Below, piece by piece: positions 3-19,274 of a stretch of 20,000 bases of DNA (positions within the stretch are counted from its first letter, which is position 1; every line of letters starts with the position of its first letter). The DNA lies in IMG/VR virus record IMGVR_UViG_3300005265_000028. The stretch is one strand, 5' to 3'. This stretch comes from an uncultured virus (IMG/VR IMGVR_UViG_3300005265_000028) (taxonomy: Duplodnaviria > Heunggongvirae > Uroviricota > Caudoviricetes). The notes under the pieces are model-generated. The model searched no databases. It saw only the letters and a list, made by a program, of their open reading frames with translations, and had not been told where the DNA came from. The position numbers and the translations under genes are program-made.

Positions 3-596
3 TTAGCCTCTCTTCGCTCTCAACCTCTTTATCTTATCGACTATACTCTCCTTCGAGCTATCGCCAGTACCATTCGCGTTATCGTTGGCTTTGTTGTTAG
101 CAGCTGAAGTGTTGTTCTTCTTGTTCTTTATCAATTCTCTTAATTTACTTTTACTTGTTCCTCCACTATTCGCGGAACCCCTTGTGGATACACTATTAGC
201 TTCACGTTCACTTTTACTATACAGCCATAACGCGACACCGACATAGCTTGCTGCTAATTTGAATGAATCGCTAACCGCAGCCTTCAGGGTCAAATCTCTT
301 GTCATACCTTTCTTGTTTATCATCTCTGAACCTACACCATACCGTTTTATAACTCTACCGTCCGGTGTTATGAACTCAATATATGATTTGACGTACCATA
401 CATCATTAATGGGCTGTACTTCTTCGACCACGAATTGCCAGTTCAATCCGAACGCTTCATCCAGCACTTTCTTGGCTTCAAATTTGTCGATGTATGTTAT
501 CTTGATATTGCTACCCCTGTCATAGCTATACAGTTTGAGATCTTTGGTAGCCAAAGCTTCCATTATTTCTTGTTCTGTTTTCTGTTTCTCTGACAT
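3..596 (-). CDS. Rad52/Rad22-like single-strand annealing protein (Sak-type) with low-complexity basic C-terminal tail
   Basis: YID...VLDEAFGLNW, RYGVG and LKAAVSDSFKLAASYVGVALWLY match the Rad52-family core. GGAGGAGG lies upstream. The stop overlaps an ATG at the window edge (TAATG). Confidence 0.8.
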   Translation of the reverse strand: MSEKQKTEQEIMEALATKDLKLYSYDRGSNIKITYIDKFEAKKVLDEAFGLNWQFVVEEVQPINDVWYVKSYIEFITPDGRVIKRYGVGSEMINKKGMTRDLTLKAAVSDSFKLAASYVGVALWLYSKSEREANSVSTRGSANSGGTSKSKLRELIKNKKNNTSAANNKANDNANGTGDSSKESIVDKIKRLRAKRG

Positions 597-641
597 TATA
601 TATGATTCCTCCTCCTAATAATTTAATATTTGATATCATAA

Positions 642-1781
642 TTATTTATTATTTTTATTGTTATATAGACAAACACTTTTTGCCGTTATCATTTTACGTG
701 TCGTGTACTGATAATCTGTTTTGATACCATCAACCGTTACAATATTACCTCTAACTAATACGTCCAAATAGTTATCTGGCTTATTGAATAAGTAACATAA
801 TATATCTCCGTAATCGCTATTCAATACGAATTGGTGATACTTAGAGCCACGTGCCGAACGTTTATTCAGCTGAACATTTGAAATCACACCATTAATAGTC
901 AATCGTTCGCCGAAATCTGTGTCATAGAAGTTGTCGCCACCATATTCTGTATTGTTGTAACCACAATACTCGTATTGTTTCTTCAACAGATACTCTTCTG
1001 TTGTATCGCAATACTTGTTATAAAGCTCTACGATCTCTTCGTAATGCTCATCTGGCGTACCATCTGCTTGTTTCTTATATAACAGGAAATAGTTAAGATT
1101 ATCCTTACCTTTAACACCGAAGTATACATTCCTGCTGTAACTGCCACGTGAACAACGCATGATGAATATTTCTCGTAACATATTCGCACGGTTACCTATC
1201 GAATCCATAGCGCCACTGAACACTAATGCTTCCAGATGACCAAGCGTTATAGCGTTACGTGTACGCGCACACATGAGCATCGTATAAGCAGTTGATACAA
1301 CAAGATGTTCAGCTGAATATGTCGAAGCTATATACAAACATTTGTATATTTCGCTATCTACCAGTTGTTTCAAACGTGATGGGGTCAGTTTGTACGTTTT
1401 CATACTACGTTTGGAGTCCTTTGATCTCCATTTCTCGTAGCTGGACCAGAACTTGTCAGTATAATCGCTGTAACCGTATACTTCCTTGTTTGTATTAGCT
1501 TTCTCTAACAGATCATGCATATTCTTGAACGGCCTATTTGTTATCAACCATTTAGCTTTATCATAACCTATGGACTTAATCGCAGATAAAGAATACAGCA
1601 CGCTATTAGTCTCTGGTATGTATACGAAACGGTGCATCGATCTGTTTATGTCAGGCGCTAACAGCTTCATCTTACGTTTACAATCTGCCAGTAACGCTCT
1701 GAACAGATCACCCTCGTCTTCTGACATAGTAGCAATAATTGAAGCCATAAGATGTGCCGCTTTCAAGGATTTCCCATACAC
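642..1781 (-). CDS. dnaE: DNA polymerase III alpha subunit, C-terminal part (end of fingers, HhH, OB fold), out of frame with the N-terminal part
   Basis: MASII...CKRKMKLLAPDINRS, LYSLSAIKSIG, RPFKNMHDL, LEALVFSGAMDSIG and a C-terminal OB fold. Homology begins near the ATG at 1748. No clear Shine-Dalgarno, so independent translation is uncertain. Confidence 0.85.
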   Translation of the reverse strand: MYGKSLKAAHLMASIIATMSEDEGDLFRALLADCKRKMKLLAPDINRSMHRFVYIPETNSVLYSLSAIKSIGYDKAKWLITNRPFKNMHDLLEKANTNKEVYGYSDYTDKFWSSYEKWRSKDSKRSMKTYKLTPSRLKQLVDSEIYKCLYIASTYSAEHLVVSTAYTMLMCARTRNAITLGHLEALVFSGAMDSIGNRANMLREIFIMRCSRGSYSRNVYFGVKGKDNLNYFLLYKKQADGTPDEHYEEIVELYNKYCDTTEEYLLKKQYEYCGYNNTEYGGDNFYDTDFGERLTINGVISNVQLNKRSARGSKYHQFVLNSDYGDILCYLFNKPDNYLDVLVRGNIVTVDGIKTDYQYTTRKMITAKSVCLYNNKNNK

Positions 1782-3900
1782 GGTTTATAACTTCAGCTGA
1801 CCAACCTTTCTGTTCCGCTTTCTTGTAGAACAGCTCCTTAAGTTTAACTACCACATCGTGCTTCTTCTTACCCAACGCTTTACGAACTTTGTCAGCTTCA
1901 AGGTCAGTCATACCGATAGCTCTACATGCGCCTAACACATTATCTTGATACAGAAATATACCATACGTATGTTTCAATACTGGTTCCAGATCAGGATGGA
2001 TGTAATCAACTGGCTCTTCGCCGTTCTTACGTTTGATGTATAGCTGGTCTAACCCGTGTTTCAACACAGCTGGCCTGAACGATGCAACGGCAGCTGCAAG
2101 GTCATTGAGGTTATGAGGCTTCATATCACGAATCAGTTTCTTCATCATACGGTTCTTAGCCTGGAAGAAACCGACCATACTGTCTTTTATTATGAAATTG
2201 TAGATAGCCATGTCGTCAGTAGGAATATCAGCTATTTTTATACCAAGCATATGTAACCCAGTCCTTATCGCGTATAACGAATTCAGACCAAGAAAATCCA
2301 TCTTCACACCGCCGGCAGCTTCTATCGATTCCATATCATACTGAACAGCTGTAAGCCCGTCACGTATCATAACAGGCCATAACGTATGAGTAGGTTGTGA
2401 TGTTATAACACAACCACATGCGTGTAACCCATCGTTTTTGGGGATATTCATATCAGATATCACTCTAATATACTCTATCCATCGTTTATGTTCAGCTGAT
2501 TTATTAGCTAACTCCAGAGGCAAATCAGTCTTAGCCAAAAGTTCGTCATAACTGGTAACATCTGCAGCTTTATTGCTGAGCGCTTTGATATCACGTTGAT
2601 CTATCTCGAATGTTTTCCCAACAACCTGGATAGTAGATTTGAGTTTCAGCCTCTGGAATGTTGCGATACGCGCAACATTCTCTTTACCATACATCTCTTC
2701 AACTATCTTGAATGCCCGGTCTCTATCTGTGTTATAGAAATCGTAGTCTATATCTGGCAATGACTTACGACCGGGTGTCATGAACCGTTCGAACATAATA
2801 TTGTGTTTAATAGGATCAATATCATGCAGCTGCAAACAATAGGCGACTAACGAACCGCAAGCGCTACCACGTGGACCATACAGGATCCCGCGACGACGGA
2901 ACTCTTTGAATATATTATAGTTCAACAGGAAATAAGGAGCTGTACCGTTAGCTTTGATTACACTCAACTCATAGTCCAGACGTTCGTAATAACGTTTGTC
3001 ACAACCAGGTATTAACACTGGTAGCTGTTCATACACCAGTTCGCTTAGCTTAGTATACTCAGTATAATCGTTATCTAATTCGATATGCGGCATGAACGGT
3101 TTGTTCAATGCCAATTCGAACTCGACTAGTTCTAATAGCTGGTTCGTATTATCTATTGCGAAACGCGGGATACCTTCGTAGCTCATCAGCTGATCATATG
3201 TCCATAGGTAATAATAGTTCTCATAAGCTCTGCTTGGAGCATCTTTACGTTTCGTCGGCATCAATAGCTCGTCTTTGATTAAGCTATGCAGCTTATGATC
3301 GTCTGACGTTACGTAATGACTATCAGTCGCGCAATACACATTATGCTCATCGAACAACTCTAGTACGAATTCGTTCAACTTACGCTGGTTCTCTTCATAT
3401 GCTGGCTGTATCTCACCTTTGAATCTGTCGCCGAACACTTCTTTATACGCGTTGAAACGTTTAACAGCTATATCTTTATCACCTTCGAGGTATGGTTTGA
3501 GGATACCGCCGCGACAAGCGGTTGTGAGGAGGAGTCCTTCGTTGTGTTTGAATAGATCGGTATACAGTATTCTTGGTTTATAGTATTTGTATCTATACGA
3601 TTCTTTCACGAGGTACAGCAGATTGTTGTATCCGGTTTCGTTTAGTACTATGATGACTAGATGGGTAGTATCCTTCGGGTCATCGTGTAACATATATGCT
3701 TCTATGCCTATGATAGGTTTCACTCCGTATTCCAGGCACATCTGTGTATGTTCGACCCAACCGTAACAGTTGCCATGATCAGTTATCGCTAATGCTTTCA
3801 ACCAACCAGATGCGTAGTCCAGATACTCTTGACTGCTTGCGATTCCGTCCGCTATACTATAGGTAGTATGAGTATGATATGGTACATACACTACTATCAA
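1708..3900 (-). CDS. dnaE: DNA polymerase III alpha subunit, N-terminal part (PHP, palm, thumb, part of fingers)
   Basis: HTHTTYSIADG, AITDHGN, GVKPIIGIEAY, ATDSHY, GPRGSACGSLVAY, MFERF, LPDIDYDF, KMDFLGL, TYGIFLYQD. Ends at SYGFN plus 9 non-homologous residues. TTG start after AAAGGAGGAG. Confidence 0.95.
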   Translation of the reverse strand: MIVVYVPYHTHTTYSIADGIASSQEYLDYASGWLKALAITDHGNCYGWVEHTQMCLEYGVKPIIGIEAYMLHDDPKDTTHLVIIVLNETGYNNLLYLVKESYRYKYYKPRILYTDLFKHNEGLLLTTACRGGILKPYLEGDKDIAVKRFNAYKEVFGDRFKGEIQPAYEENQRKLNEFVLELFDEHNVYCATDSHYVTSDDHKLHSLIKDELLMPTKRKDAPSRAYENYYYLWTYDQLMSYEGIPRFAIDNTNQLLELVEFELALNKPFMPHIELDNDYTEYTKLSELVYEQLPVLIPGCDKRYYERLDYELSVIKANGTAPYFLLNYNIFKEFRRRGILYGPRGSACGSLVAYCLQLHDIDPIKHNIMFERFMTPGRKSLPDIDYDFYNTDRDRAFKIVEEMYGKENVARIATFQRLKLKSTIQVVGKTFEIDQRDIKALSNKAADVTSYDELLAKTDLPLELANKSAEHKRWIEYIRVISDMNIPKNDGLHACGCVITSQPTHTLWPVMIRDGLTAVQYDMESIEAAGGVKMDFLGLNSLYAIRTGLHMLGIKIADIPTDDMAIYNFIIKDSMVGFFQAKNRMMKKLIRDMKPHNLNDLAAAVASFRPAVLKHGLDQLYIKRKNGEEPVDYIHPDLEPVLKHTYGIFLYQDNVLGACRAIGMTDLEADKVRKALGKKKHDVVVKLKELFYKKAEQKGWSAEVINRVWEILESGTSYGFNYCYYVRRRG

Positions 3901-3913
3901 CTCCTCCTTTCCA

Positions 3914-3938
3914 AATGGCTCCTATCTAAGGAGCCATT
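3914..3938 (-). promoter_or_regulatory. Perfect 10-bp stem-loop between the primase stop and the dnaE ribosome-binding site
   Basis: AATGGCTCCT-atcta-AGGAGCCATT inverted repeat with only a 3-nt U run, a few nt upstream of the dnaE Shine-Dalgarno. Confidence 0.55.
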
Positions 3939-4971
3939 AAAATTTGAATAAATGATCTATCTCTCCAATGAACCCTTTGTATTCATATTCTGTTCTGCAT
4001 AGCTTCTTCAATTTATTATACAACCTGTATTTGATATATAACAAGTGCTGTTCGTTATATTCTTCAGCATCGTTCATGACTGTTTTGAAGTCTTCAGCTG
4101 AATGATGCTTGAGGTATTCACGCATATCCTTCGCTGGCAGTTTCATAACGAATACTTTACTCATACCATATAGCTTATCGATTATCTTCATAGCTGCTTC
4201 AGTGCCAGCGGTATCGTTATCATAACATACATATACTGTTTTCCTGTTAAAATATTTGTAGCACCATTCCAGTTTGAAAGAGTTACAACCATTAGTATTC
4301 GTGACTGGCGTTACGAATTTGTCTACACCCGCGCTGTAAGCTGCTAACACATCTGGCTCACCTTCTAGTAGAAGTAATTTGTTACTCTTAACCAGAAGGT
4401 TATGTGGATACATAGCAGCACGGCTACCGGATGCCATAAGAGTTTTAGAGAACGGGTTACCGTTGAGTCTATGATACTTCACACATACGAGTTTGCTGTC
4501 GTTATTAACTGGGATGACTAGTCGTTTACAGCTCTTATCGAGCCTTATACCAAGTTTGAAACGTTTAACTATATCAGTCGATATACCATATTTGTTGACT
4601 AACCTGAGATATTTGTTGTTATTAAGTAACCTATTATGCATCTCTGCGATATCTTTCCATGTAACATCCAGCTGTTGCTCATGTTTCACTAAAGTCGGAG
4701 CTAACAGCTTCAACGCTTCTTGGAATGTTATACCTAACTTATCGATAGTCAGCTGAATGAAATCACCTGAGGTGCCACATGCTTTGCATTGGAACAAGCC
4801 GGTTGTAGAGTTCAGATACATACTCGGATTATTGTCATCATGATATATACATGTGAATACCCATTCGTTACCATACTCTTTTGGCCATTGCTCTAATACA
4901 TCTTCGCAGAACATCTGTTTATCAGTAGTATCCCATATCAGCTGTCTGTCGATACGGTTATTCGTATACAT
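3937..4971 (-). CDS. DNA primase (CHC2 zinc finger + Toprim)
   Basis: CIYHDDNNPS...FQCKACG zinc finger; LLLEGEPDVLA and YVCYDNDTAG Toprim motifs; KDMREYL. Start placed at ATG 4971 (ORF track gives 4983). Confidence 0.92.
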   Translation of the reverse strand: MYTNNRIDRQLIWDTTDKQMFCEDVLEQWPKEYGNEWVFTCIYHDDNNPSMYLNSTTGLFQCKACGTSGDFIQLTIDKLGITFQEALKLLAPTLVKHEQQLDVTWKDIAEMHNRLLNNNKYLRLVNKYGISTDIVKRFKLGIRLDKSCKRLVIPVNNDSKLVCVKYHRLNGNPFSKTLMASGSRAAMYPHNLLVKSNKLLLLEGEPDVLAAYSAGVDKFVTPVTNTNGCNSFKLEWCYKYFNRKTVYVCYDNDTAGTEAAMKIIDKLYGMSKVFVMKLPAKDMREYLKHHSAEDFKTVMNDAEEYNEQHLLYIKYRLYNKLKKLCRTEYEYKGFIGEIDHLFKF

Positions 4972-5545
4972 ATTTATACACATCCTTGATCACATTAAAG
5001 AATTTTATCTCGATATCTTTATTATTAGCTCTTAACACATACGAAGGATGATATAACATGTATACCCTGTATATCTCATTGTTGATCATAACATCTTTAT
5101 GTTTCCCAGCTAGCTTCGTTATACCGCCAGTTGATTTGTTATCAACCACAGATTTGTAGGCCACATTCCCTAACACCAGTATCGCTATCGGCGAAACATA
5201 ATCTATCTCAGCTGCTAATATACTATAACAGCTGAATATCGCATCATCTGGTGGTTTGACTATTGTGCCGTTGATATGCGGGAAACATTTGACTGCATTT
5301 GTTATGTAACAATCATCAGCGGCGAACCCTGCTAGTTTGAGGTAACGGCGCAAGAGTTTACCACTCTTGCCTATGAACGGTTTCATCTGTTCGTATTCTT
5401 CTGGTCCCGGCGCTTCTCCTACTATTACTAGCTTCGCACTACCGTTACCTTCCGGGCCAACCTTATGAGACACGATACGATGTAACCGGCAACGTGTACA
5501 GTTACTGCACTGTATACCGGTATGCAAATCTATGTCATATCTCAT
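4958..5545 (-). CDS. Uracil-DNA glycosylase, family 4 (Fe-S cluster type)
   Basis: CTRCRL, GEAPGPEE, PFIGKSGKLL, YITNAVKC, HPSY. Confidence 0.93.
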   Translation of the reverse strand: MRYDIDLHTGIQCSNCTRCRLHRIVSHKVGPEGNGSAKLVIVGEAPGPEEYEQMKPFIGKSGKLLRRYLKLAGFAADDCYITNAVKCFPHINGTIVKPPDDAIFSCYSILAAEIDYVSPIAILVLGNVAYKSVVDNKSTGGITKLAGKHKDVMINNEIYRVYMLYHPSYVLRANNKDIEIKFFNVIKDVYKYVYE

Positions 5546-5843
5546 ATAATGATTTGTCCTCCGTTATATTCTCTTGTTCATTAGTATCAGCTGATAATTC
5601 GAAACGTAACACTTTGATATAAACTTTGCTGTCCCATTGACACAATGTGCCTGAAACCATAATCGTATCACCTTGCTTGATATTATTCTTCATCGCGATC
5701 GCCACATTTTTCCATGCGATGATAGTAAACAAGTTCTTACCGACCGTTAATCTGAATTGTAACCGTGCGGTCTGGTTATCTGCTGGTTCTTTGAACGATA
5801 CTATACGTTCAACTATACCAACAAGAACAACTCTGTTAAACAT
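5535..5843 (-). CDS. ssb: Single-stranded DNA-binding protein (short OB fold)
   Basis: MFNRVVLVG, F..IAWKNVA, KQGDTIMVSGTL and an acidic tail. Confidence 0.8.
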   Translation of the reverse strand: MFNRVVLVGIVERIVSFKEPADNQTARLQFRLTVGKNLFTIIAWKNVAIAMKNNIKQGDTIMVSGTLCQWDSKVYIKVLRFELSADTNEQENITEDKSLYEI

Positions 5844-6438
5844 ATTGGAATATCACACCCCTAACTATTTCGTTTATCTCAGCGTTAGAAAGATCAGCTG
5901 AGATATCAACAACGACAGTACGTTCGTTATTAAGTAGCCACTCGTCATATAAAGACTTTATGTGTTTGAGATACTCGATTGTTATATTCTCTTCGCCAGA
6001 ACGACCACGTTGCGCTATACGTTTAAGCGCGAATTCAATATCTATGTTGAGATAAAGGAATACATCTGGCTCACGTACGAAATACATCATATCATCGAAT
6101 ATCATGTTGTAACGTTGACGTTCCCATTCTTCCATGTAACCAGCTTCAGTTACTAACCTAGAAAATATATGATAATCAGTATATATCGAACGTTCTATTA
6201 CTATGTTCTTATCTGAATACCTGCGTTGTATATCGTAATGTATATGCGCACGACTCGTCAGCATCGCTAACTGGAACGGGAACGCCCATCTGTCCGGGTC
6301 TTCGTAGTACAGTTCGAGTAACCTCTTGTTCTTATCTATCGGTTCAGTAATCGTAATAATATTATAAGCGCTGGTATCTATGCGTCTTATGAACTCGCTT
6401 TTACCAGCGCCTATGTTACCCTCTATGCTAATAAGCAT
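5836..6438 (-). CDS. Deoxynucleoside kinase
   Basis: ISIEGNIGAGKS P-loop, EP, YYEDPDRWAFPFQ, ERSIYTD, RIAQRGRSGE. Confidence 0.93.
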   Translation of the reverse strand: MLISIEGNIGAGKSEFIRRIDTSAYNIITITEPIDKNKRLLELYYEDPDRWAFPFQLAMLTSRAHIHYDIQRRYSDKNIVIERSIYTDYHIFSRLVTEAGYMEEWERQRYNMIFDDMMYFVREPDVFLYLNIDIEFALKRIAQRGRSGEENITIEYLKHIKSLYDEWLLNNERTVVVDISADLSNAEINEIVRGVIFQYV

Positions 6439-6441
6439 CGC

Positions 6442-6588
6442 TCACACCTCACACAGTGTGTTATCTTCACAGTTGCAGTTGCCTATACATAAATCAACTG
6501 GCTGTCTGCAACGGTCACATAACACTAAGATTTCACGTGCATCTCTGTAATAGTCAGCTACCAGAGATAATAATAATGTATCGTTCAT
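6442..6588 (-). CDS. Small Cys-rich hypothetical protein (possible metal binding)
   Basis: AGGAG before ATG 6588; CDRC...CIGNCNC; fills the gap between genes. Confidence 0.6.
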   Translation of the reverse strand: MNDTLLLSLVADYYRDAREILVLCDRCRQPVDLCIGNCNCEDNTLCEV

Positions 6589-6627
6589 ATGTTTCACTCC
6601 TGATATAAAGTTTTGCATAACCATTTA

Positions 6628-7608
6628 TTATTTAATTAATACATGTAAATACTCAGCAACTGAAGATGTTCTTTTATCGCTATGGCTGTTGAAACGTCTT
6701 TTGACATACGTGTAACGATCATATACGCCGTGTTTGGAGAACATCTTCTTTATCTCATTTAATGATAGAATCCCTTCGTCGTTATATGACATGAACACAT
6801 ATCTGCATTTCAATCGTTTCAATAATTCGTTCAAATAACGTGCTGCGTTGCTCTTATAACACAGCTGCGAACGAATATAATTATCAGAACTGTAGTCTTG
6901 ATATCTTGTGCTGCAACATTTCGCAATAGTATTCAATACTCTGTACATAGAACCGTATTGTCTACGATTATACGGCGGGTCTATATACACGATATCAGCT
7001 GAAACGAATTTGGTTAACTCGAGAGCATCTAGCCTGTATACCTTACCATTCGTTACATGCGATAACGGTAACGCTGGCAGAAACTCTATGGGCTTAACAG
7101 CGCTGCTCTTGAATTGCTTGAGGTACGATTCATAGTTACAAGCTACATTAGCGACCCTATCAGCTGACTCTAATATAGATGCTACCACGAAATAATATAA
7201 CCTATGACCTTCGTATCTGCGCGCATAGACGCAAGCTGCATCGAGCTTCATTGCGTTATGCTCTGTGTAATACATCTTACCGCCAAGCGGACTATACGTA
7301 TTAGTTATATAGCCACGTAACGGTTTCAGGTTATTCAGCTGATTAATGATATCAACACACTCCTGTTGCGTATCAGCATCTAATGATAAGCCTATGTAGT
7401 TATTCGCTAACACGTATGAGAACAACTCGATATCATTAGCTATAACACCATTGCATTCGTACATACGTTGTGCTACAACAGTAGTGCCTGCCATTATGTC
7501 AAGGAAACTATGGTTCTCTAACTTGCCATCGATAGTCCTTATGATAGTGTTATATATGAACTCCAGAACGCTTAGCTTAGAGCCAATAAAATTTAATACT
7601 TTCTTCAT
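6628..7608 (-). CDS. N6-adenine DNA methyltransferase, M.NlaIII/M.HpyI-like
   Basis: NFIGSK, DIMAGT, VIANDIELFSYVL, ASILESADRVAN, YIDPPYNRRQYG, FMSYNDEG. ATG 7608 overlaps the dUTPase stop. CATG specificity is only by family analogy. Confidence 0.88.
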   Translation of the reverse strand: MKKVLNFIGSKLSVLEFIYNTIIRTIDGKLENHSFLDIMAGTTVVAQRMYECNGVIANDIELFSYVLANNYIGLSLDADTQQECVDIINQLNNLKPLRGYITNTYSPLGGKMYYTEHNAMKLDAACVYARRYEGHRLYYFVVASILESADRVANVACNYESYLKQFKSSAVKPIEFLPALPLSHVTNGKVYRLDALELTKFVSADIVYIDPPYNRRQYGSMYRVLNTIAKCCSTRYQDYSSDNYIRSQLCYKSNAARYLNELLKRLKCRYVFMSYNDEGILSLNEIKKMFSKHGVYDRYTYVKRRFNSHSDKRTSSVAEYLHVLIK

Positions 7609-8036
7609 CGTCCGGTTGAACCGTACCCACCTTTCTTTCTGGCTGTGCCGCCTAACTGTGTGGACAGCTTCCATTCCACATCCTCTACCTTACAGAACAC
7701 AGCTTGCGCTATTCTATCATATTTGTTGACAACATATGGTTCAGCTGAAGTATTGAATAATATCACACCTAACTCACCACGGTACCCGGAGTCTACTGTG
7801 CCAGGTGAATTGAGCACTATGATACCATGTTTTAATGCTAAACCAGAACGTGAACGTATCTGCATCTCATAACCAACCGGTATCTCGATGGAAAACCCAA
7901 GTTTGAATAGAGATATTTCTCCTGGCTTCAAAGCTTTTGTATCTAACGAATACAAATCGTAACCGCTATCATCGTGGTGTTGTTTCGTTGGCACCACAGC
8001 ATCACTATTGAGTAACAAAAACTTTATTGTCAACAT
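7605..8036 (-). CDS. dut: Trimeric dUTPase
   Basis: SGYDL, RSRSGLA, NSPGTVDSGYRGE, DRIAQ, RKKGGYGSTG. Confidence 0.97.
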   Translation of the reverse strand: MLTIKFLLLNSDAVVPTKQHHDDSGYDLYSLDTKALKPGEISLFKLGFSIEIPVGYEMQIRSRSGLALKHGIIVLNSPGTVDSGYRGELGVILFNTSAEPYVVNKYDRIAQAVFCKVEDVEWKLSTQLGGTARKKGGYGSTGR

Positions 8037-10776: not shown

Positions 10777-10779
10777 TCT

Positions 10780-11645: not shown

Positions 11646-12018
11646 AACGCTCATGCCTTTCGTTAATATTAACAGTGTTGGTAACAAAGCTGGTATCATT
11701 ATTATTCTTTATGTGCTCTATTAATAGTAATACGAACGGCACTTTCTTGAATATACCCATCTCGTTGAAACCATCGTCAACGTATTGCAATACAACGTGT
11801 GGCTGTTGTCTGTGTGAGAAGCTGCGCACTCTGTAACGTTTTCCTTCGTATCTGATAACAGAGCCAACTGGCATGACACGTTGTATCTCGCGTCCAATAT
11901 TATCTAACAACATACTTTCAGTCATCTCTAATGACTTGAGTTTCAGTTGTGTATGATATATCTCCTCTTTGGTCTTCTTATAAGCTTTATAAAGTGTAAT
12001 AGCTTTCGAAATATCCAC
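11638..12018 (-). CDS. Hypothetical protein
   Basis: GAAAGGTGA before a GTG start; helical N-terminus. Confidence 0.7.
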   Translation of the reverse strand: MDISKAITLYKAYKKTKEEIYHTQLKLKSLEMTESMLLDNIGREIQRVMPVGSVIRYEGKRYRVRSFSHRQQPHVVLQYVDDGFNEMGIFKKVPFVLLLIEHIKNNNDTSFVTNTVNINERHERYV

Positions 12019-12094
12019 GGTATCACCTTTCTATTATATAATTCTCTGAATATGACATAACAGATAAATTGTTTAAACATAAAACACAACATCT

Positions 12095-12643
12095 CTAACT
12101 CTTCAACTCTAAAAATTTGTTCAATATTTGTTGTAATATCGGTCTATCAAATTTGTGAACATTGATCATATTAAAAGTATTATTTCTGCTCCTGCGATAT
12201 ATATAAGCACATTCGTTGGTGAAACAAACATAATCACTTATACCGCTATTACATATCCGTTGCATACATATATTGCATGGATATGGCCGGAATAGTTTAC
12301 CAACATATCTGTCATAACCAAGAAGATATAACGTCGCGCCTGCGCAATTCGAGGCGCCTGCCTTCAATATCGCATTATCTTCAGCGTGCATCGCTACACA
12401 GCCTCTGTATTTATCATAATCGTTTGTATTAACTTTATCAGCTGAACGGTTGCAACGGTTATGATCTATACAATTGATATGGCCAGCTGGGCTGCCATTA
12501 TAGCCTATAGTTATGTTCGTAACTATACCGTTATATTCTTTAACTATAACCGCACCATATGCTTTCTTCATACATGTTGAACACATTGCAGCTGATAGAC
12601 ATAACATTGCATACTTCTCGTATCCAACTAAACGGCTACTAAT
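12095..12643 (-). CDS. dCMP deaminase (ComEB-like zinc deaminase)
   Basis: STC...YGAVIVK, GYNGSPAG, HAEDNAI, PCNIC. The probable start is ATT at 12643; the ORF track uses ATG 12607. Confidence 0.92.
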   Translation of the reverse strand: MSSRLVGYEKYAMLCLSAAMCSTCMKKAYGAVIVKEYNGIVTNITIGYNGSPAGHINCIDHNRCNRSADKVNTNDYDKYRGCVAMHAEDNAILKAGASNCAGATLYLLGYDRYVGKLFRPYPCNICMQRICNSGISDYVCFTNECAYIYRRSRNNTFNMINVHKFDRPILQQILNKFLELKS

Positions 12644-12664
12644 ACTATCGCTCCTTTCTGTTCC

Positions 12665-12700
12665 ATTTAAAACTTATGCGGAGCTCTCTACTCTCCGCAT
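12665..12700 (-). terminator. Putative intrinsic terminator
   Basis: ATGCGGAG-N9-CTCCGCAT stem (12676-12700) followed by AAGTTTTAAAT on the minus strand, just after the peptide ORF. Confidence 0.5.
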
Positions 12701-12710
12701 CGTTCAATAT

Positions 12711-12776
12711 CTACCAGTAATCCTCAGGTTCATCAGGTTGAGGTTGTCTGGTTTTATCTTCTTCTGGTCCGGACAT
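12711..12776 (-). CDS. 21-aa acidic micropeptide MSGPEEDKTRQPQPDEPEDYW (not in ORF track)
   Basis: Strong GGGAGGTGA four nt before the ATG; TAG stop followed by a hairpin. Confidence 0.6.
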   Translation of the reverse strand: MSGPEEDKTRQPQPDEPEDYW

Positions 12777-12803
12777 AATGTCACCTCCCAATATAACTAT
12801 AGC

Positions 12804-13343
12804 TCATTTATTCTTTATCATATCATCATATTCACCGAACTGTGTATCCCATTCATATATGGAGCGTATACCCCATATATCGAATACCATATCAAGGTAT
12901 TCGTTGAACTCTTCTTCGGCGCAATTGTTAACTTTAAGGAAATGGTTTTTCACGTCATCAAAATTCAGCTGACCTTTATTTGCAAGTTCTTTAGCGAAAC
13001 CTATATGCTTTACGTGATGACACATATCGCACAGAGCGATGAAACCTTTCAATCTCTGTATACAATTGTCATCATCGTATTCCCATATCTCATGACAGTT
13101 CAGTTTCGCTTTGACACCACAGATGCCACATCTGTAGTTGTATTGTTTATATACTTGTTTGCGAAGCTCGTCCCATTGTTCTTTTGTGAAATGTTTCCTC
13201 AGGTTATTATACCATGTGGAAGCAGGAACAAGTTCTATTGTTAACCTATAATTCGGCAGTTGTTTCTTTGTTTCGTTAATTACGCTCTTGAATTGTTTAT
13301 CCAAACTATTTATTAAATCAACGAAAGAATCAAGCACAACCAA
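12804..13343 (-). CDS. HNH-type (His-Me finger) endonuclease-like protein
   Basis: WDELRKQVY...CGICG...LNCHEIW...LCDMCHHVKH. True start may be GTG 13337. Confidence 0.8.
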   Translation of the reverse strand: MVVLDSFVDLINSLDKQFKSVINETKKQLPNYRLTIELVPASTWYNNLRKHFTKEQWDELRKQVYKQYNYRCGICGVKAKLNCHEIWEYDDDNCIQRLKGFIALCDMCHHVKHIGFAKELANKGQLNFDDVKNHFLKVNNCAEEEFNEYLDMVFDIWGIRSIYEWDTQFGEYDDMIKNK

Positions 13344-13485
13344 GCTCCTTTATCGCTTGTTTTATTGCGTCCCGAACGATATCACTCTCAGCTACATATT
13401 CGGCAACTTCTTCCAGCTGTTCAGCTGACAACTCTAAACCTGAATCGTTTACATAACAAGTAACTAATTCATATATAGATAACAT
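13330..13485 (-). CDS. 51-aa hypothetical protein (not in ORF track), paralogue of 13986-14243
   Basis: MLSIYELVTCYVNDSGLELSAEQLEEVAEYVAESDIVRDAIKQAIKELGCA aligns with MLSITDIVRNYMKHNNIKLSDTQIEDIAHYVSES. Confidence 0.75.
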   Translation of the reverse strand: MLSIYELVTCYVNDSGLELSAEQLEEVAEYVAESDIVRDAIKQAIKELGCA

Positions 13486-13490
13486 TTACA

Positions 13491-13682
13491 TCAGCTCCGT
13501 TCATATCTATTATATATATCATCTAGCTCCACTTCATCAATAACCGTACCGGTCATGTTGATTGCATATTTTATATCAACTTCATCGAGCGCAACGAATG
13601 GCATGCTTTCTATGAAATCTGATAGACTTTCATAGCCCGCTTCGTATAACACATCGCATAATTTGTTGCGTTCGTACATCAC
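13491..13682 (-). CDS. Small acidic hypothetical protein, paralogue of 14271-14459
   Basis: Shares L.EAGYE.L and VELD.IYN.Y with 14271-14459. Confidence 0.8.
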   Translation of the reverse strand: MMYERNKLCDVLYEAGYESLSDFIESMPFVALDEVDIKYAINMTGTVIDEVELDDIYNRYERS

Positions 13683-13981
13683 TCTAGCTCTTCTCCTTCG
13701 TATATATCTGTCAATAAATCAACAAGCACAGCATACGCATCTGTGTAACCCTCTATATCATCTTCAGATGGCTTCGTATCGAGCATATTATACGCAGCAC
13801 GCATATGAAGCATCATCTTAACTATATCTTTCGATATAATTAACGATTTAAGATATGTTACATCTTCGTTTTCTTTATCGACAAGGAACGATACGAATAA
13901 TACTATCATTTTGCGTTCGTAATTGTTCGTTGTTCTGTTGTAATAATCTTTCAGATGTATCAATAGATCATTAACTTTCAT
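13679..13981 (-). CDS. Hypothetical protein
   Basis: GGAGTGA before ATG 13981; stop overlaps the next start. Confidence 0.7.
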   Translation of the reverse strand: MKVNDLLIHLKDYYNRTTNNYERKMIVLFVSFLVDKENEDVTYLKSLIISKDIVKMMLHMRAAYNMLDTKPSEDDIEGYTDAYAVLVDLLTDIYEGEELE

Positions 13982-13985
13982 ATTA

Positions 13986-14243
13986 TCACTCCATGCTTTC
14001 ATTATAATCTTTGTATAACACGTTACATTCTTCATCGAATTCACGCGTGATCTCGAATGTATTATTTATATTCAGCTTTCTAGGTTTGTTTGATATTTCT
14101 AGATCATATAGAGCATATTGTATTATTGTGTCCAACAATGTACTTTCTGACACATAATGAGCTATATCTTCTATTTGTGTGTCAGAAAGCTTTATGTTGT
14201 TATGTTTCATGTAATTCCTTACAATATCTGTAATACTTAACAT
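13986..14243 (-). CDS. Hypothetical protein, paralogue of 13330-13485
   Basis: AAAGGAG upstream; similarity to 13330-13485. Confidence 0.75.
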   Translation of the reverse strand: MLSITDIVRNYMKHNNIKLSDTQIEDIAHYVSESTLLDTIIQYALYDLEISNKPRKLNINNTFEITREFDEECNVLYKDYNESME

Positions 14244-14270
14244 AACATTCCAAATCTCCTTTCATTAGTT

Positions 14271-14459
14271 TCATTTATAGTTATTATATATTCTATCGAG
14301 CTCTACGAACTCAATATTATTGTTGTTCAGACTTAATGCATAATCTATATCAGTTTCGCTAAGCATAACCGGCAAGAAGCTATCAATTAATTCAGCTAGG
14401 TCTTCGTAGCCAGCTTCAAATAGCGCATCTCTTAATCGCCTACGATGATACATTAACAC
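14271..14459 (-). CDS. Small acidic hypothetical protein, paralogue of 13491-13682
   Basis: AAAGGAG upstream; similarity to 13491-13682. Confidence 0.8.
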   Translation of the reverse strand: MLMYHRRRLRDALFEAGYEDLAELIDSFLPVMLSETDIDYALSLNNNNIEFVELDRIYNNYK

Positions 14460-14487
14460 TTGCTCCTTTCATTTAATTAATACAACA

Positions 14488-14910
14488 CTATGGAGTCATA
14501 GCGAAATGAACTGTATTCTCAGATATATCAACTGAATGTATCTCAGTGACTTTGCCCAATAGTTCTATTAACTCTTCGTTGATAACTCGGAACCGTTTAT
14601 CTTTTACTGGTTCTGAGTTATCTATAACAAATCTATACTCTTTAACTTTCTCATCCTCGTTATTAATTGCTATCGTAACAAATATTTTGCCGTCTAATTC
14701 TTTTAGCATATATTCAACACCGTAATATGCTTTCATGTAATCAAATACCATACGCCACGCGTCAACTATGGTATTCTTATATAGCTCTAAATATATTGTT
14801 GTCTCACGCATATATACTTTGTATCTGGTATACCCATCATTCATCTCTGTTATAGTGAATGATGCAATCCCTTTGTTGCCTGGAATATATAATGGTCTCG
14901 CACGTATCAT
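14488..14910 (-). CDS. Hypothetical protein
   Basis: 140-aa ORF with AGGAAGTGA upstream. Confidence 0.7.
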   Translation of the reverse strand: MIRARPLYIPGNKGIASFTITEMNDGYTRYKVYMRETTIYLELYKNTIVDAWRMVFDYMKAYYGVEYMLKELDGKIFVTIAINNEDEKVKEYRFVIDNSEPVKDKRFRVINEELIELLGKVTEIHSVDISENTVHFAMTP

Positions 14911-14929
14911 AATTCGTCACTTCCTGTAT

Positions 14930-15487
14930 TTAAAATTTGTTTAATACATGTATTGCATCTTTTAACACCAGCTCACGAAGAACGTTTCGTAACAGACTAT
15001 AAAACTCTGGCGGTAACAGTTTTACGCGTGTATCGAATTCTTCTTTGAGCCATTCCAAACATTCTTGGTTATCAGCTGAATCAACTATTGAAACCAGCTG
15101 TTCCGGTTTAGGTAACGCATTGTGAGTATCTATATAATCTATCATAGCGTTACATACGGCATCATAACCAAACTTCGTAGGCGGTATGTATCTGTCTCGA
15201 ATAGTTATCAGCTTGTTCTTTATATCCTGAAGTCTATTATAGTTGCTCCAGAATTTATGTATTATGCGTTTCACATACTCTTCGTACGCATTTTCTAGCA
15301 TATCAATATAGCCATAACTTTTGCGGATAACATAATCGCAGTAATCAATAGCGCCTTCATAGTCATTTAACCATTCTATTAAGTCGTCACTCGTTGTTTC
15401 ATCCATTATCATGTCAGCTATTTCTTGTTTAGTTTTGCCGACATTATTCTTCACAATCTGTTCGATACCATTTTCACGTAAATACAT
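14930..15487 (-). CDS. Two-domain hypothetical protein; N-terminal domain related to the 17204 and 18262 family
   Basis: LIEWLNDYEGAIDYCDYV matches LIDWLNNCEDAITYCDEV. AAAGGAG before ATG 15487. Confidence 0.7.
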   Translation of the reverse strand: MYLRENGIEQIVKNNVGKTKQEIADMIMDETTSDDLIEWLNDYEGAIDYCDYVIRKSYGYIDMLENAYEEYVKRIIHKFWSNYNRLQDIKNKLITIRDRYIPPTKFGYDAVCNAMIDYIDTHNALPKPEQLVSIVDSADNQECLEWLKEEFDTRVKLLPPEFYSLLRNVLRELVLKDAIHVLNKF

Positions 15488-15500
15488 AATCTCATCTCCT

Positions 15501-16097
15501 TTAAATATTAATATGGAACGCAAATCTTGCTGTTATTTCATCGCATTCATATTCGAATACATATAGTTTATCGCCTAAATCGCTGTAGTCATAAAGTTTT
15601 ACATCAAATGTTTTGCTTTTGAGTTTATATAACTTTCTGACTTTCGCTATATTGCTTTTACTATACTCCAGCTTATCGTTATCAACCGGCAATATCGTTT
15701 CAATATCATCAGCTGATAATGTGAACTGGCAGGCATCAACGTATTGATAGTCCATATCCAGTATTGCCCTGTAGTTAGGAAACACTGTGCATCCAGTCAT
15801 GAATCTCTTGCTGTTCACCGCAACATATGTATCACATAATTTTATTTTATCACCTAGTTCCACATGATTATACAGTTCTGTGAATTTATCGTAATACAAT
15901 ATTGCATATATATTGTCATTACTATTGATCTGGAAATGCGATTCAAAAAGTGTATAACCGTCCGTTGCTACAACCCTAAAAGTATTACTATCTATTTCAA
16001 ATAATACACGAGTAAACAAATCACCCCCTTTATATAAAGCGTTAATTGTATCTAATATTTGCATTAACTTTTTATCAACTGAAATTACTATTGACAT
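15501..16097 (-). CDS. Beta sliding clamp (DnaN)-like domain protein, short
   Basis: VLFEIDSNTFRVVATDGYTL and VFPNYRAIL resemble the DnaN central-domain ATDG and FP.Y motifs; only 198 aa. Confidence 0.65.
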   Translation of the reverse strand: MSIVISVDKKLMQILDTINALYKGGDLFTRVLFEIDSNTFRVVATDGYTLFESHFQINSNDNIYAILYYDKFTELYNHVELGDKIKLCDTYVAVNSKRFMTGCTVFPNYRAILDMDYQYVDACQFTLSADDIETILPVDNDKLEYSKSNIAKVRKLYKLKSKTFDVKLYDYSDLGDKLYVFEYECDEITARFAFHINI

Positions 16098-16101
16098 TCA
16101 A

Positions 16102-16665
16102 TCACCTCGCTAATCTATACGCGTTATTCACTTTAAGAGATATCATTGGATTGCGCATTACAACATGATACGATGTGAGGTTATCATCTAGCTTCATCTT
16201 CTCTATTCTTGTGTATCTATTTATTATCATTTCATATAATGCGTTATCATGCTTTGAATACTCCTCAATATGTTCCTTGATCATATAGTGATGCATACAT
16301 ATAATCGGCAGTTCTATTACATACAAATTATCACATGTTTTGTAATATATGTAATTATCAAACCCATGTTTGCTATCGTACGCAAACAAATATGACTCTA
16401 TATCTTTTGTTTTAATTCGCGGGTTATCCAACTCTCGTTGCATCTGTTTAGCAATAAGCATGCTGAACATTCTTTCTGTAACAACATCTGCGATATTAGT
16501 ACATCCAAATTCGTTTGTGTCATTAAACCAATATTTTAAACATATATCATCATATATAGAATCATTATTTTCTTGCAATACTATGTTTGATGATTTGGTT
16601 AGTTCATATTCTTTGTTGTAAAAGCTAATGTTAGTATTCACATTTGGCGCCAAAACTTTTGACAT
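16102..16665 (-). CDS. Hypothetical protein
   Basis: AAAGGAGG upstream; 187 aa. Confidence 0.75.
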   Translation of the reverse strand: MSKVLAPNVNTNISFYNKEYELTKSSNIVLQENNDSIYDDICLKYWFNDTNEFGCTNIADVVTERMFSMLIAKQMQRELDNPRIKTKDIESYLFAYDSKHGFDNYIYYKTCDNLYVIELPIICMHHYMIKEHIEEYSKHDNALYEMIINRYTRIEKMKLDDNLTSYHVVMRNPMISLKVNNAYRLAR

Positions 16666-16906
16666 AATATCCTCCTTTCCAATCTATTTCGATATAAAAA
16701 TATGCAGGTTGGTAAAATTCCAACCTGCATATCACACACATGTAACCGTCTTTATAGCTTTCTAATACCAAGCCGGTTACTATGAAATAGTACTTATCAC
16801 CAATACGAACTGGTGTAAGATGCACTCCTGAACTAAATATAGTTCTGTCTGCAAACGTCTCTACACCACTCGCTTCTAATGTCCATAATATAGTCTTCTC
16901 AATCAT
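16631..16906 (-). CDS. Hypothetical protein
   Basis: 91-aa ORF directly abutting the upstream stop. Confidence 0.6.
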   Translation of the reverse strand: MIEKTILWTLEASGVETFADRTIFSSGVHLTPVRIGDKYYFIVTGLVLESYKDGYMCVICRLEFYQPAYFYIEIDWKGGYYVKSFGAKCEY

Positions 16907-17191
16907 TTATATATCAATTCCTATTTCGCTGATTATTTCGGTTACACATTGCCTGTAACCGAATTCAGCTGGAATATTACTATACATCGAATGGAATAAA
17001 CTATGGTAATAACCAGCTTTCGTTACAGTAGTATCAATTAATGCAATAAACTCTTTATCGCTAATACTGTTGCACATAGTTTCAGCTGCATATGTTTTCA
17101 ATTCATCGCTGAATAGCTTGGCGACAGCTTTGGTTATGCTGTCGCCATTTATATTATCTAACTTGTTAATTACATCTCTTATATCTATCAT
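16907..17191 (-). CDS. Hypothetical protein
   Basis: GAGGTGA upstream; 94 aa. Confidence 0.7.
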   Translation of the reverse strand: MIDIRDVINKLDNINGDSITKAVAKLFSDELKTYAAETMCNSISDKEFIALIDTTVTKAGYYHSLFHSMYSNIPAEFGYRQCVTEIISEIGIDI

Positions 17192-17203
17192 ACTGTCACC
17201 TCA

Positions 17204-17578
17204 TTACTTATCACCAATGGTATCTTCAAGTTCATCTAACATTCTTATACTCCTGTCATAGCAATACTTAGCAACTGCTATTGTTAGAAGCTTCCACATC
17301 GTCATGCCAGGAGAATATGTCTCTTCTAATACTTCATCACAATACGTTATAGCATCTTCGCAGTTGTTTAACCAATCAATCAGCTGATTATAATATGGCA
17401 TCACCTCATAAAACATTTCGTATTGGCGATCATCAACTAAATCACGTAACTCGCTTATAGATTCTACTTCTTCACATTCAGCATATTCTGCTAACATATC
17501 GAAGATAAAACTGTCATTACAAACAAAATCCTGTTTGTATCTAACTACTACATCATCACGATATTTCTTTATGTCCAT
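17204..17578 (-). CDS. Acidic protein, possibly Ocr-like DNA mimic; paralogue of 18262-18627
   Basis: AAAGGAG upstream; D/E-rich; FVCND, MPYY.QL..WLNNC, YC.EVLE and MW.LLTIA shared with the paralogue. CDS and paralogy are solid; the function is tentative. Confidence 0.6.
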   Translation of the reverse strand: MDIKKYRDDVVVRYKQDFVCNDSFIFDMLAEYAECEEVESISELRDLVDDRQYEMFYEVMPYYNQLIDWLNNCEDAITYCDEVLEETYSPGMTMWKLLTIAVAKYCYDRSIRMLDELEDTIGDK

Positions 17579-17626
17579 ATATTTATCTCCTTTCTATATA
17601 ATACAGATTATCATAACTATTTATTG

Positions 17627-18238
17627 TCAACACAAATTGCTGACTTTATAATCAAGCATTGCGTCTATCTCATCTATCAAGTGGTCAACATTTATATCAT
17701 TCCATAATATCTCACGTAAAGTGTACCACTCAAGGTTATCTATTAACTCATATAATAAATCGTCCCTATCGAATTCCTCCTTAAACTTCTCCCGTTCTTC
17801 CTGTTTTGGTTTATAAGCACATAACAGATGTTCAGTAATATAAGCAACAGAATCTTCACAAATGCAATCTATTAACGTATCTATATCAAACTTCAGTTTC
17901 ACGTATAGTAATGAATCGATATTATCATTTAACCAGCCAGTATATACTCTGTAACAATCTGCAATTTCGTACAAACAATCGAAATCCACTATAATAGGCT
18001 TGCAGTCTATCACAGCTTCTTTTATATCGTTCTTAAAGAACTCGCTGTGTAATACGTTATTCTCTTTTATCTTGCGTCTAATGAAAGCACGCGCATAACT
18101 GCGTGCTTCAGCTTCTGTGATACCCAGCTCAGCTGGAGTTACACATTCGTCATGCCCAGAAACTTCAAGCGTAGAGATAAGCTCATAATCTTCGTTTAGA
18201 ACATAATGCTTCTTAAATGGCAATTTTATGTATCTCAT
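17627..18238 (-). CDS. Acidic hypothetical protein
   Basis: AAAGGTGG upstream; 203 aa, D/E-rich C-terminal half. Confidence 0.75.
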   Translation of the reverse strand: MRYIKLPFKKHYVLNEDYELISTLEVSGHDECVTPAELGITEAEARSYARAFIRRKIKENNVLHSEFFKNDIKEAVIDCKPIIVDFDCLYEIADCYRVYTGWLNDNIDSLLYVKLKFDIDTLIDCICEDSVAYITEHLLCAYKPKQEEREKFKEEFDRDDLLYELIDNLEWYTLREILWNDINVDHLIDEIDAMLDYKVSNLC

Positions 18239-18261
18239 TCCTATCCCACCTTTCCTGACAA

Positions 18262-18627
18262 TTAAGCTAAAATCTTGTCTAACAAATATTCTACACGTTC
18301 TCTGACGTACTCGTTAGATGCAATCGTTAATAAACGCCACATATCGGTTACACAATCCTTTTGTTCTCCTTCTAATACTTCGTTGCAATAATCAATTGAT
18401 GTTCTACAGTTATTCAACCATTCGAACAGCTGATAAAAATATGGCATTGAGCCATAACAAAATAATTCGTCAAAGTTTCTTTCTATGAATTCTTTTAGCT
18501 TTCCCTTTGTTTCGAAATTGTTGTTATATGTTATACCAATTAATATATCGATTAATGTTTCATCATTGCATACAAAATTCTGGTCGCTTGGAATGCTAAA
18601 CATTCTCTTCTCCAACTTTATTGACAT
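18262..18627 (-). CDS. Paralogue of 17204-17578 (possibly Ocr-like)
   Basis: QNFVCND, MPYFYQLFEWLNNC, YCNEVLE, MWRLLTIA. Confidence 0.6.
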   Translation of the reverse strand: MSIKLEKRMFSIPSDQNFVCNDETLIDILIGITYNNNFETKGKLKEFIERNFDELFCYGSMPYFYQLFEWLNNCRTSIDYCNEVLEGEQKDCVTDMWRLLTIASNEYVRERVEYLLDKILA

Positions 18628-19274
18628 AACTTTTTCCTTTCAATTAATACATCGATATAGTTATCAAGCGGATACTGAAAATAGTTCTGTTCTATTATAT
18701 GTAACGCTTCTTCTGGCGACATGCCAGAATTATCGACAAGATTATCAACCAATACGTTACACATATCGTAACCGAACGTTATCATATCAGCTGATATGTC
18801 AGTGATGTCACCATCAAATACACCGTCGTTCAACGGGTTCTCTGACGATATGTAATCGATTATTTTCACCAGTTCGTTCAGCTGACCATATATATCGTTG
18901 CTCTTGAACGGGAACTTCCGGTCGTTTAATTCTTCTATCAGCTGAATCAACTCTTCGGTCATCCAGTAGCCTATATCGCTACTGTTACCAGGGTGTGAAC
19001 CAAAATACACGCCGGGTGGCGCTAGATATGAAAGAATATCAGTCAATTCGTCTAACGTTTCCGTATCGTTATCACCCTCTTGATACCATGCGAGCGTGTC
19101 TTCCATGTCGTAGAGCAATTCTTCGTAGTCCCGTTCGTTGAAGTTAGCACATATTAACTTCAACAATCGTTTATTCGATATGAAATCTTTGAATACATTA
19201 ATCAAGTATTTAATATCTAATGTATTTTCGCTTATAGGACCCAAATGTTCATATTTTATATACATTCGTATCAT
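18618..19274 (-). CDS. Acidic phage hypothetical protein with APPGVYFGSHPGNSSDIGYW motif
   Basis: AGGAG upstream; motif resembles a pattern I recall from uncharacterised phage proteins (AP.G.YFG.HPG...D.G.W). Confidence 0.7.
   Translation of the reverse strand: MIRMYIKYEHLGPISENTLDIKYLINVFKDFISNKRLLKLICANFNERDYEELLYDMEDTLAWYQEGDNDTETLDELTDILSYLAPPGVYFGSHPGNSSDIGYWMTEELIQLIEELNDRKFPFKSNDIYGQLNELVKIIDYISSENPLNDGVFDGDITDISADMITFGYDMCNVLVDNLVDNSGMSPEEALHIIEQNYFQYPLDNYIDVLIERKKLCQ

Follow-up and report, generated by a model that had tools for sequence, protein, structure and literature searches.

A highly iterated palindrome of the HIP1 kind in the replication module of an uncultured phage

The stretch of DNA analysed here, 20,000 nucleotides from the uncultured virus IMGVR_UViG_3300005265_000028 (Caudoviricetes; hereafter the window), is filled with exact copies of a single octameric palindrome, TCAGCTGA, built around the hexameric core CAGCTG. 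The octamer occurs 27 times, whereas dinucleotide-preserving shuffles of the window (n=200) contain 0.30 copies on average and never more than 3. The word acts at the level of DNA and is restricted to this phage lineage. It is not a member of HIP1, the highly iterated palindrome (HIP) of cyanobacteria, but is, in four of the five features compared, a phenomenon of the same sort. My tentative reading, to which I give a probability of roughly 0.35, is that the word, written in full (W)TCAGCTGA(W) with its core CAGCTG, is a phage-encoded, methylation-linked, genome-wide mark of the HIP kind. All results on the phage itself rest on the 20 kb window.

Abundance and anatomy of the palindrome

The octamers span positions 866 to 18945 and start at 866, 1309, 1793, 2492, 3186, 4094, 4749, 5587, 5894, 6995, 7160, 7335, 7741, 8706, 9564, 9904, 10518, 11186, 12438, 12965, 13421, 15072, 15709, 17380, 18787, 18878 and 18938. 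The core is more frequent still, with 49 copies between 101 and 18944 (27 inside octamers and 22 without both outer bases) against a mean of 2.54 and a maximum of 7 in the dinucleotide-preserving shuffles (n=200). Base composition alone predicts 2.19 hexamers and 0.22 octamers, and the enrichment amounts to about 19-22-fold for CAGCTG and about 90-125-fold for TCAGCTGA. An earlier note on this DNA had listed the same 27 octamer starts, every one of which is exact, and had counted about 49 hexamers, the number found here. It had put the enrichment at about 100-fold for the octamer and about 25-fold for the hexamer, and the G+C content that it took to be about 35% is in fact 37.0%, declining from about 0.41 at the left of the window to 0.32-0.35 at the right. 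The longer forms that it quoted, a 12-mer at 8704 and a 16-base palindrome at 18783, are indeed in the sequence, together with five copies of TTCAGCTGAA.

Among all 6-mers CAGCTG has the highest ratio of observed to expected copies (22-fold on base composition), and TCAGCTGA is the commonest 8-mer of the window, the next five being its own overlapping neighbours. A maximum-order Markov model expects 33 hexamers and 21 octamers, but I rejected it as a null model because the sub-words on which it draws are made common by the word itself, which renders it unusable.

CAGCTG is the recognition site of the PvuII restriction-modification system, and restriction sites are normally avoided. The earlier note had contrasted the abundance of the word with this usual avoidance of palindromes, and the contrast exists within the window itself, where GATC (0.55), GGCC (0.49), CTAG (0.35) and GTAC (0.56) all fall well short of expectation and nine hexamer palindromes have no copy at all. 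Separately, ATATAT and TATATA are 2.3-2.6-fold over the base-composition expectation in the window and 2.7-3.0-fold over it in L001, a related metagenome contig described below, and AATT and TTAA occur in the window at about half of expectation.

The anatomy of the sites is that of a core with a preferred surround of one or two bases. T precedes the core in 64 of 98 half-sites (background 31%), the second base outward is A or T in 78 of 98 (background 63%), and beyond two bases from the core the flanks carry at most 0.03 bit of information. Since the flanks show no similarity, the word is not a repeated element. Variants of the octamer that differ by one letter number 10 at the outer position and 4 at the three inner positions, and hexamers one letter away from the core are not depleted, standing 2-3-fold above the base-composition expectation. 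Because the word is its own reverse complement, it is not an asymmetric, strand-biased signal of the Chi or KOPS type.

The octamers are also spaced more evenly than random points would be. Their gaps have a coefficient of variation (CV) of 0.64 compared with 0.97 for random points (P 0.007), the largest octamer-free stretch measures 1671 bases, where the null model gives 2802 on average (P 0.008), and the variance-to-mean ratio of octamer counts per kb is 0.57.

One public run, labelled marine sediment metagenome, contains 98% of the words sampled from the window and may be its source. Sequences from a second study bear on the reality of the word and on its persistence among strains. Three runs of that study hold 12-14% of the words sampled from the window, and their contigs comprise pieces at least 99% alike as well as relatives down to less than 90% likeness. 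Contigs of the second study match 93-323 and 7535-7796 without a difference, including the sites at 101 and 7741, and therefore neither the sequence nor the word is an assembly artefact. A related strain that differs by about 14% over 9795-9987 keeps the octamer at 9904-9911 intact, with changes at 9900, 9903 and 9915 among the differences listed; the chance of such an escape is about 3 in 10.

The word acts at the level of DNA

All 27 octamers lie in open reading frames, 18 of them read as Ser-Ala-Asp/Glu (TCA-GCT-GAn) and nine as Gln-Leu (nnT-CAG-CTG-Ann). None lies in the third frame, which would read a TGA stop. The octamers are spread over 21 different reading frames, and 24 of the 32 larger frames contain at least one core. 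The only two copies outside the larger frames, an octamer followed directly by a hexamer, sit in a 51-codon reading frame on the minus strand (13330-13485).

Neither codon usage nor protein sequence explains these numbers. When synonymous codons were shuffled within genes (n=1000), with the proteins and the codon usage kept, the gene set contained 2.76 +/- 1.48 octamers and at most 9, compared with 26 observed; the same shuffles (n=1000) gave 10.3 hexamers and at most 21, compared with 47. Shuffling the order of codons left 0.36 octamers and 3.85 hexamers. The earlier note had named disappearance of the enrichment under codon- and amino-acid-preserving shuffles as the outcome that would tell against it, and the enrichment does not disappear.

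The word has instead left its imprint on the proteins. Ser-Ala-Glu occurs seven times and Ser-Ala-Asp 11 times, where 1.2 of each are expected, and Gln-Leu occurs 27 times against 13.4. Taken together the Ser-Ala-Asp/Glu tripeptides are 7-fold too common, and 17 of the 18 are spelled with the word, as are 16 of the 27 Gln-Leu dipeptides. Considered from the side of the DNA, the octamer fills 27 of the 30 places that synonymous codons would permit and the hexamer 49 of 76. Twelve control hexamer palindromes fill 0-23% of their permitted places; among 12 control octamers, 10 are filled nowhere, one fills 1 of 16, and ACAGCTGT, which contains the core, fills 2 of 4.

Comparison with homologous proteins shows what the imprint has replaced. 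The DnaE-type polymerase carries three octamers at positions where five homologues (46-53% identical) all differ from it, and two of its four hexamer-only sites fall on conserved x-Ala-Val positions, through codon choice. In the gene of the D12-class methyltransferase, which contains three octamers and one further hexamer, one octamer has brought in Ala at a residue that is Gly in 13 of 16 homologues, another falls on a Ser-Ala-Asp common to several of the 16, and the third sits at a variable residue; the hexamer puts Leu where all 16 homologues have Tyr, Trp or Phe. Since conserved residues have been overwritten, the pressure for the word must be strong. The earlier note was thus right that the word lies in unrelated genes and in more than one frame, that it imprints SAE/SAD and QL on the proteins, and that it acts on DNA, a conclusion supported by frame use, synonymous shuffles, saturation and overwritten residues alike.

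Candidate writer and reader, gene context and distribution

Two methyltransferase-like genes lie 356 bases apart within the window. One, on the minus strand at 6628-7674, encodes a D12-class N6-adenine DNA methyltransferase (PF02086, E 3.4e-23) with an intact DPPY motif, which matches the PADLOC model of Type II methyltransferases over its full length (E 7e-74), and this enzyme may be the one that marks the word. Among phage proteins its closest homologue (36% identical) comes from Agrobacterium phage Atu_ph07 and is annotated after the Helicobacter ulcer-associated adenine methyltransferase. Atu_ph07 is a jumbo phage, and in 41 kb of its genome CATG reaches 0.36 and CTAG 0.10 of the expected number.

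The other gene, on the minus strand at 8030-8908, encodes a protein with the fold of a cytosine-5 (C5) methyltransferase that lacks the catalytic cysteine. C5 profiles and M.HhaI match the protein only from about residue 75 on, and its structure model in the Atlas aligns residues 4-292 to C5 methyltransferases with template-modelling (TM) scores of 0.76-0.79. Between residues 44 and 116 it has no cysteine, and E-A-D is aligned with the E-N-V of M.HhaI. Judged by the usual consensus motifs, it also departs from the family in Pro-Cys, in the glycine-rich S-adenosylmethionine loop and in the Gly-Asn belonging to the last motif. The protein thus has neither the Pro-Cys nor the E-N-V of an active cytosine-5 methyltransferase, and going by its sequence it is probably not an active enzyme; the modelled fold makes it a candidate reader of the word. 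Among candidate sequences picked by shared sequence words it has no homologue at E 1e-5 or better. The octamer at 8706 encodes a Ser-Ala-Asp just past the place where the catalytic motif would be expected.

The surrounding genes make the window a phage-type replication and nucleotide module. All reading frames of the gene set (at least 80 codons) are on the minus strand, where they take up 93% of the window. Their products are a Rad52-like annealing protein, the DnaE-type polymerase in two pieces, a DnaG-type primase, a UDG-family protein, an SSB-like protein, a deoxynucleoside kinase, the D12-class methyltransferase, a dUTPase, the C5 methyltransferase homologue, a thymidylate kinase, a dCMP deaminase, an HNH endonuclease and about 19 small proteins without a known family. 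Structural genes and tRNA genes are absent from the window. The HNH endonuclease (12804-13343, minus strand; PHROG 5200, E 2.4e-40) is possibly a nicking partner, as a candidate only, and the 20 unassigned proteins, compared with Pfam (at E up to 1), PADLOC and NCBIfam, include no further nuclease or repair protein. A 163-residue protein at 8969-9460 was considered as a restriction endonuclease and set aside, since its model is poor, with a predicted local distance difference test (pLDDT) score of 0.47, and its weak resemblance to a cluster of restriction endonucleases (TM score 0.41) falls below the bar.

Other features of the module are recorded here in their own right. Two proteins of the deoxynucleoside/thymidylate kinase family (5836-6438 and 9753-10382), together with the dUTPase, the dCMP deaminase and the UDG-family protein, make up a full thymidylate supply line in an A+T-rich phage; no thymidylate synthase is found in the window. 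The DnaE-type polymerase (642-3900) is split into two frames, of 730 and 379 codons, with a 74-base overlap, and in five relatives it is a single protein of 1133-1224 residues. At the junction (near 1731-1746) the frame changes and about 23-28 conserved residues that follow the Tyr-Gly-Phe-Asn motif of the relatives are missing; the contigs of related strains end their match at 1733/1734. A deletion, the loss of an insertion or a true split of the gene could each account for the junction. Related-strain contigs also skip 1180 bases at 15500-16681 (in two runs) and 603 bases at 13485-14089, and the small genes without known function in the right part of the window are a cargo that varies from strain to strain.

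None of 50,697 phage records contains near-identical DNA, and IMG/VR holds no close relative of the DnaE, the D12 methyltransferase or the C5 homologue. Both methyltransferase-like proteins occur also on a contig of 139,761 bases and the polymerase on one of 72,987 bases. The metagenome contig L001 encodes a one-piece DnaE 54% identical to that of the phage, has the same G+C and shares four of the 32 window proteins, but its 19,359 bases contain not a single CAGCTG, where 2.1 are expected, and no other strongly enriched palindrome. Two more distant IMG/VR contigs (DnaE 33% and 26% identical) have 7 and 2 copies of CAGCTG. All three are too distant for a site-by-site comparison.

Public collections were scanned for three octamers at set distances. 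These scans returned 29 and 14 stretches in IMG/VR, and 119 among 185,579 species represented by one genome each, 39 of these 119 stretches coming with only about 800 bases. Wherever the surroundings could be read, the matches were local tandem arrays with periods of 15-69 bases, mostly 69, and this includes the organisms with several matches (an Actinomycetota and a Saccharimonadales metagenome-assembled genome). In these three-octamer scans no IMG/VR contig and no species-representative genome showed dispersed copies at a density like that of the phage. A 3-Mb genome at the density of the phage would be expected to give about 14 matches and one at a third of that density about 0.5, and the scan thus excludes a represented host at equal density but not one at lower density. 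As to the arrays themselves, those containing TCAGCTGA have a period of 69 (also 42, 36, 21 and 15) and are found in many unrelated phyla, including Chlamydiales, Saccharimonadales, cyanobacteria, Acidobacteriota and Actinomycetota; they presumably encode protein repeats of 23 residues in which the palindrome is retained at the DNA level.

Bacteroidota were also considered. Five of their genomes contain 36-228 octamers in 2.5-5.1 Mb, and the densest of 401 sampled Bacteroidales genomes has 264 in 5.4 Mb, or one in 20 kb compared with one in 0.74 kb in the phage. Shine-Dalgarno use fits poorly with a Bacteroidota host. With gene starts taken mechanically, a Shine-Dalgarno motif stands at the right distance before 16 of 34 starts in the phage, several of the motifs being strong, which argues against such a host.

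What the word may be

The closest parallel is found in cyanobacteria. HIP1 (GCGATCGC) and the alternate HIPs are octameric palindromes that occur about once per kb, their one-letter variants concentrate at the first and last base, and CGATCG is not particularly enriched outside HIP1, according to the sections of Elhai (2015; PMC4390886) used here. There Elhai proposes a ratchet of mismatch repair, dependent on methylation, that reaches saturation near one site per 1000 nt, and points out that a word may be over-represented without having been selected for a function. Two orphan methyltransferases, one of the C5 type and one Dam-like, have HIP1 as their target (Hagemann et al., 2018; PMC6105098, in part), and although HIPs have been described since the 1990s, the parts of both papers drawn on here leave their function unsettled (PMC4390886, PMC6105098). 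The phage word resembles HIP1 in being an octameric palindrome that recurs about once per kb around a hexamer core such as Type II methyltransferases recognise, in having most of its one-letter variants at the outer base (10 against 4), in having gained its sites by point substitution within unrelated genes, and in the presence of methyltransferase genes of two classes in the window. It differs in that its outer bases are A/T, its genome is 37% G+C and its carrier is a virus, in that copies of its core outside the octamer are also about 10-fold in excess (22 found, roughly 2 expected), and in that its cytosine-methyltransferase homologue has no catalytic cysteine. The word is TCAGCTGA in a phage-like replication module and not GCGATCGC in a cyanobacterial chromosome, and HIP1 itself is therefore not its name; the likeness that the earlier note had drawn is nonetheless real in the hexamer core, the preferred outer base and the gain by point substitution in unrelated genes.

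Other known systems share less with the phage. The DNA uptake sequences of Neisseria and Pasteurellaceae, and Chi, are asymmetric short words that occur about once per kb or few kb and are maintained by the proteins that read them. They are like the phage word in their shortness, their density and their place inside genes, but they are asymmetric and bacterial, whereas the phage word is palindromic and the scan of species genomes found no bacterium of comparable density. The PvuII site is identical to the core, yet the phage accumulates these sites, and the window contains no PvuII-type endonuclease or N4-cytosine methyltransferase; within these 20 kb, no cognate endonuclease stands together with a protecting methyltransferase in the manner of a Type II restriction-modification system. 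The Dam/MutH repair system of Escherichia coli likewise uses a short palindrome, which is needed within about 1 kb of any mismatch (PMC4390886, in part), and a need of that type would explain the density and the even spacing of the phage word. Unlike the phage word, however, GATC is not strongly over-represented in E. coli, and that mismatch repair acts in the phage is pure surmise. In the part of a restriction-site survey used for comparison, the strongest over-representation is about 1.4-1.5-fold (CCGG in Helicobacter), compared with 20- to 90-fold for the phage word. A search of the published literature found no highly iterated palindrome in a phage and met the octamer itself in primers only; in Elhai (2015; PMC4390886), CAGCTG, AGCT and 'phage' do not appear.

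The form of the word, an 8-base palindrome whose 6-base core is typical of Type II enzymes, suggests a reader that recognises double-stranded DNA as a dimer or with pseudo-symmetry. I infer that a protein reads the word, that the phage encodes it, that methylation has a part and that the mark is put to use. On this account a symmetric, Type-II-like, sequence-specific phage protein would read the word, the likeliest reader or writer being the D12 methyltransferase (6628-7674), perhaps with the catalytically dead C5 homologue (8030-8908). A process that depends on the mark, possibly in its methylated form, would need one within about 1 kb of every position, and this process may be repair coupled to replication, in which the mark would tell the strands apart, or the labelling of phage DNA as self. 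Sites would be gained singly, by point substitution where the proteins tolerate it, with the hexamer core arising before the outer T/A, up to full coverage of the genome. The reading as a HIP-like mark is preferred because of this pattern of core and then outer base, the near-saturation, the density of about one site per 0.7 kb and the largest gap of 1.7 kb. The narrower proposition that the virus runs a HIP system of its own, in which the phage methyltransferase and its dead homologue write and read the palindrome and so direct a phage-controlled process, for instance telling the strands apart when the phage corrects errors of its own replication, or knowing self during the destruction of host DNA, is unlikely as it stands.

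Several observations weigh against a methylation-linked mark. No MutS, MutL, MutH, Vsr, PvuII-like endonuclease or N4-cytosine methyltransferase was detected in the 20 kb window, which is part of a contig of at least 73 kb. The products expected from deamination of 5-methylcytosine in the core, CAGTTG/CAACTG, number 17 against 7.5 expected, and their lack of depletion tells against a driving process like very-short-patch repair. The even spacing comes from 27 sites and two correlated tests, and all hexamers together are not under-dispersed (CV 0.88, P 0.23). As to the proposed writer, the nearest relatives of the D12 methyltransferase are 38-39% identical and come without the name of a site, and the surroundings of its Atu_ph07 homologue (128352-169323, 41 kb) contain no CAGCTG where 5.1 are expected, although at only 36% identity the CAGCTG-free DNA of that phage says nothing on specificity.

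Of the alternatives, the one that comes nearest is that the word is a binding site, placed every few hundred bases, for a phage protein that does not modify DNA, such as a dimer that coats, condenses or packages the genome or organises its replication. An 8-base palindrome with a 6-base core is what a dimeric reader would be expected to prefer, and the octamers are evenly spaced. The protein at 8030-8908 would be the obvious candidate for such a reader, an orphan that keeps the full C5 fold (TM 0.76-0.79) and the target-recognition region but has lost the catalytic cysteine and changed E-N-V; the reading of its motifs outside the HMMER alignment, however, goes by general consensus motifs. About 1.3 sites per kb near saturation is also a great deal of selection for a structural protein to exert, even if phage populations are large, and I consider this explanation unlikely, though not negligible. 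Somewhat less likely again is that the word is the signature of an unsampled host, a word that enzymes of the host make or one of its processes (repair, uptake or a Chi-like signal) reads, and that the phage has acquired through replication there or through mimicry. Phages do commonly drift toward the oligonucleotide usage of their hosts, but the scan of 185,579 species gave only 119 stretches, the readable ones being local tandem arrays, and no organism with several dispersed matches; the Bacteroidales, with 5 + 401 genomes inspected, reach at most one octamer per 20 kb, and the phage uses Shine-Dalgarno motifs. The related contig L001, with the same G+C, has no CAGCTG either. On the strength of the public genome scans a system of the phage is favoured over a signature of the host.

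A functionless by-product of biased repair or replication, that is, Elhai's ratchet running without selection, is improbable, more so than either of these. Filling 27 of 30 permitted places is what a one-way ratchet would give, and according to Elhai over-representation as such need not reflect selection for function (PMC4390886). A blind ratchet does not predict even spacing of the octamers, however, the overwritten conserved residues carry a cost, and words one letter away from the core are not depleted. The remaining suggestion, that the enrichment is an artefact or has a trivial cause in codon or peptide bias, a repeated element, a protein repeat or an assembly error, draws on the fact that dense TCAGCTGA elsewhere in public data does come from tandem protein repeats. 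It is refuted, since the enrichment survives the shuffles, occupies two frames and 21 reading frames, shows no similarity of flanks and is matched free of differences by the contigs of the second study. What probability remains is left to mechanisms that I have not thought of.

That a phage saturates its DNA with one restriction-type palindrome and avoids others shows viral genomes to be open to a strong sequence-specific force. If it is true that one of the two methyltransferase-like genes beside the replication genes is the writer or reader, the system could be tested with two cloned genes and an oligonucleotide. Were the virus to run its own HIP system, it would be the first HIP whose writer and reader are encoded by a small genome amenable to work at the bench, and would offer a direct experimental handle on the 30-year-old question of HIP1. 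The word of this phage looks like a viral counterpart of the cyanobacterial HIP1 repeat.

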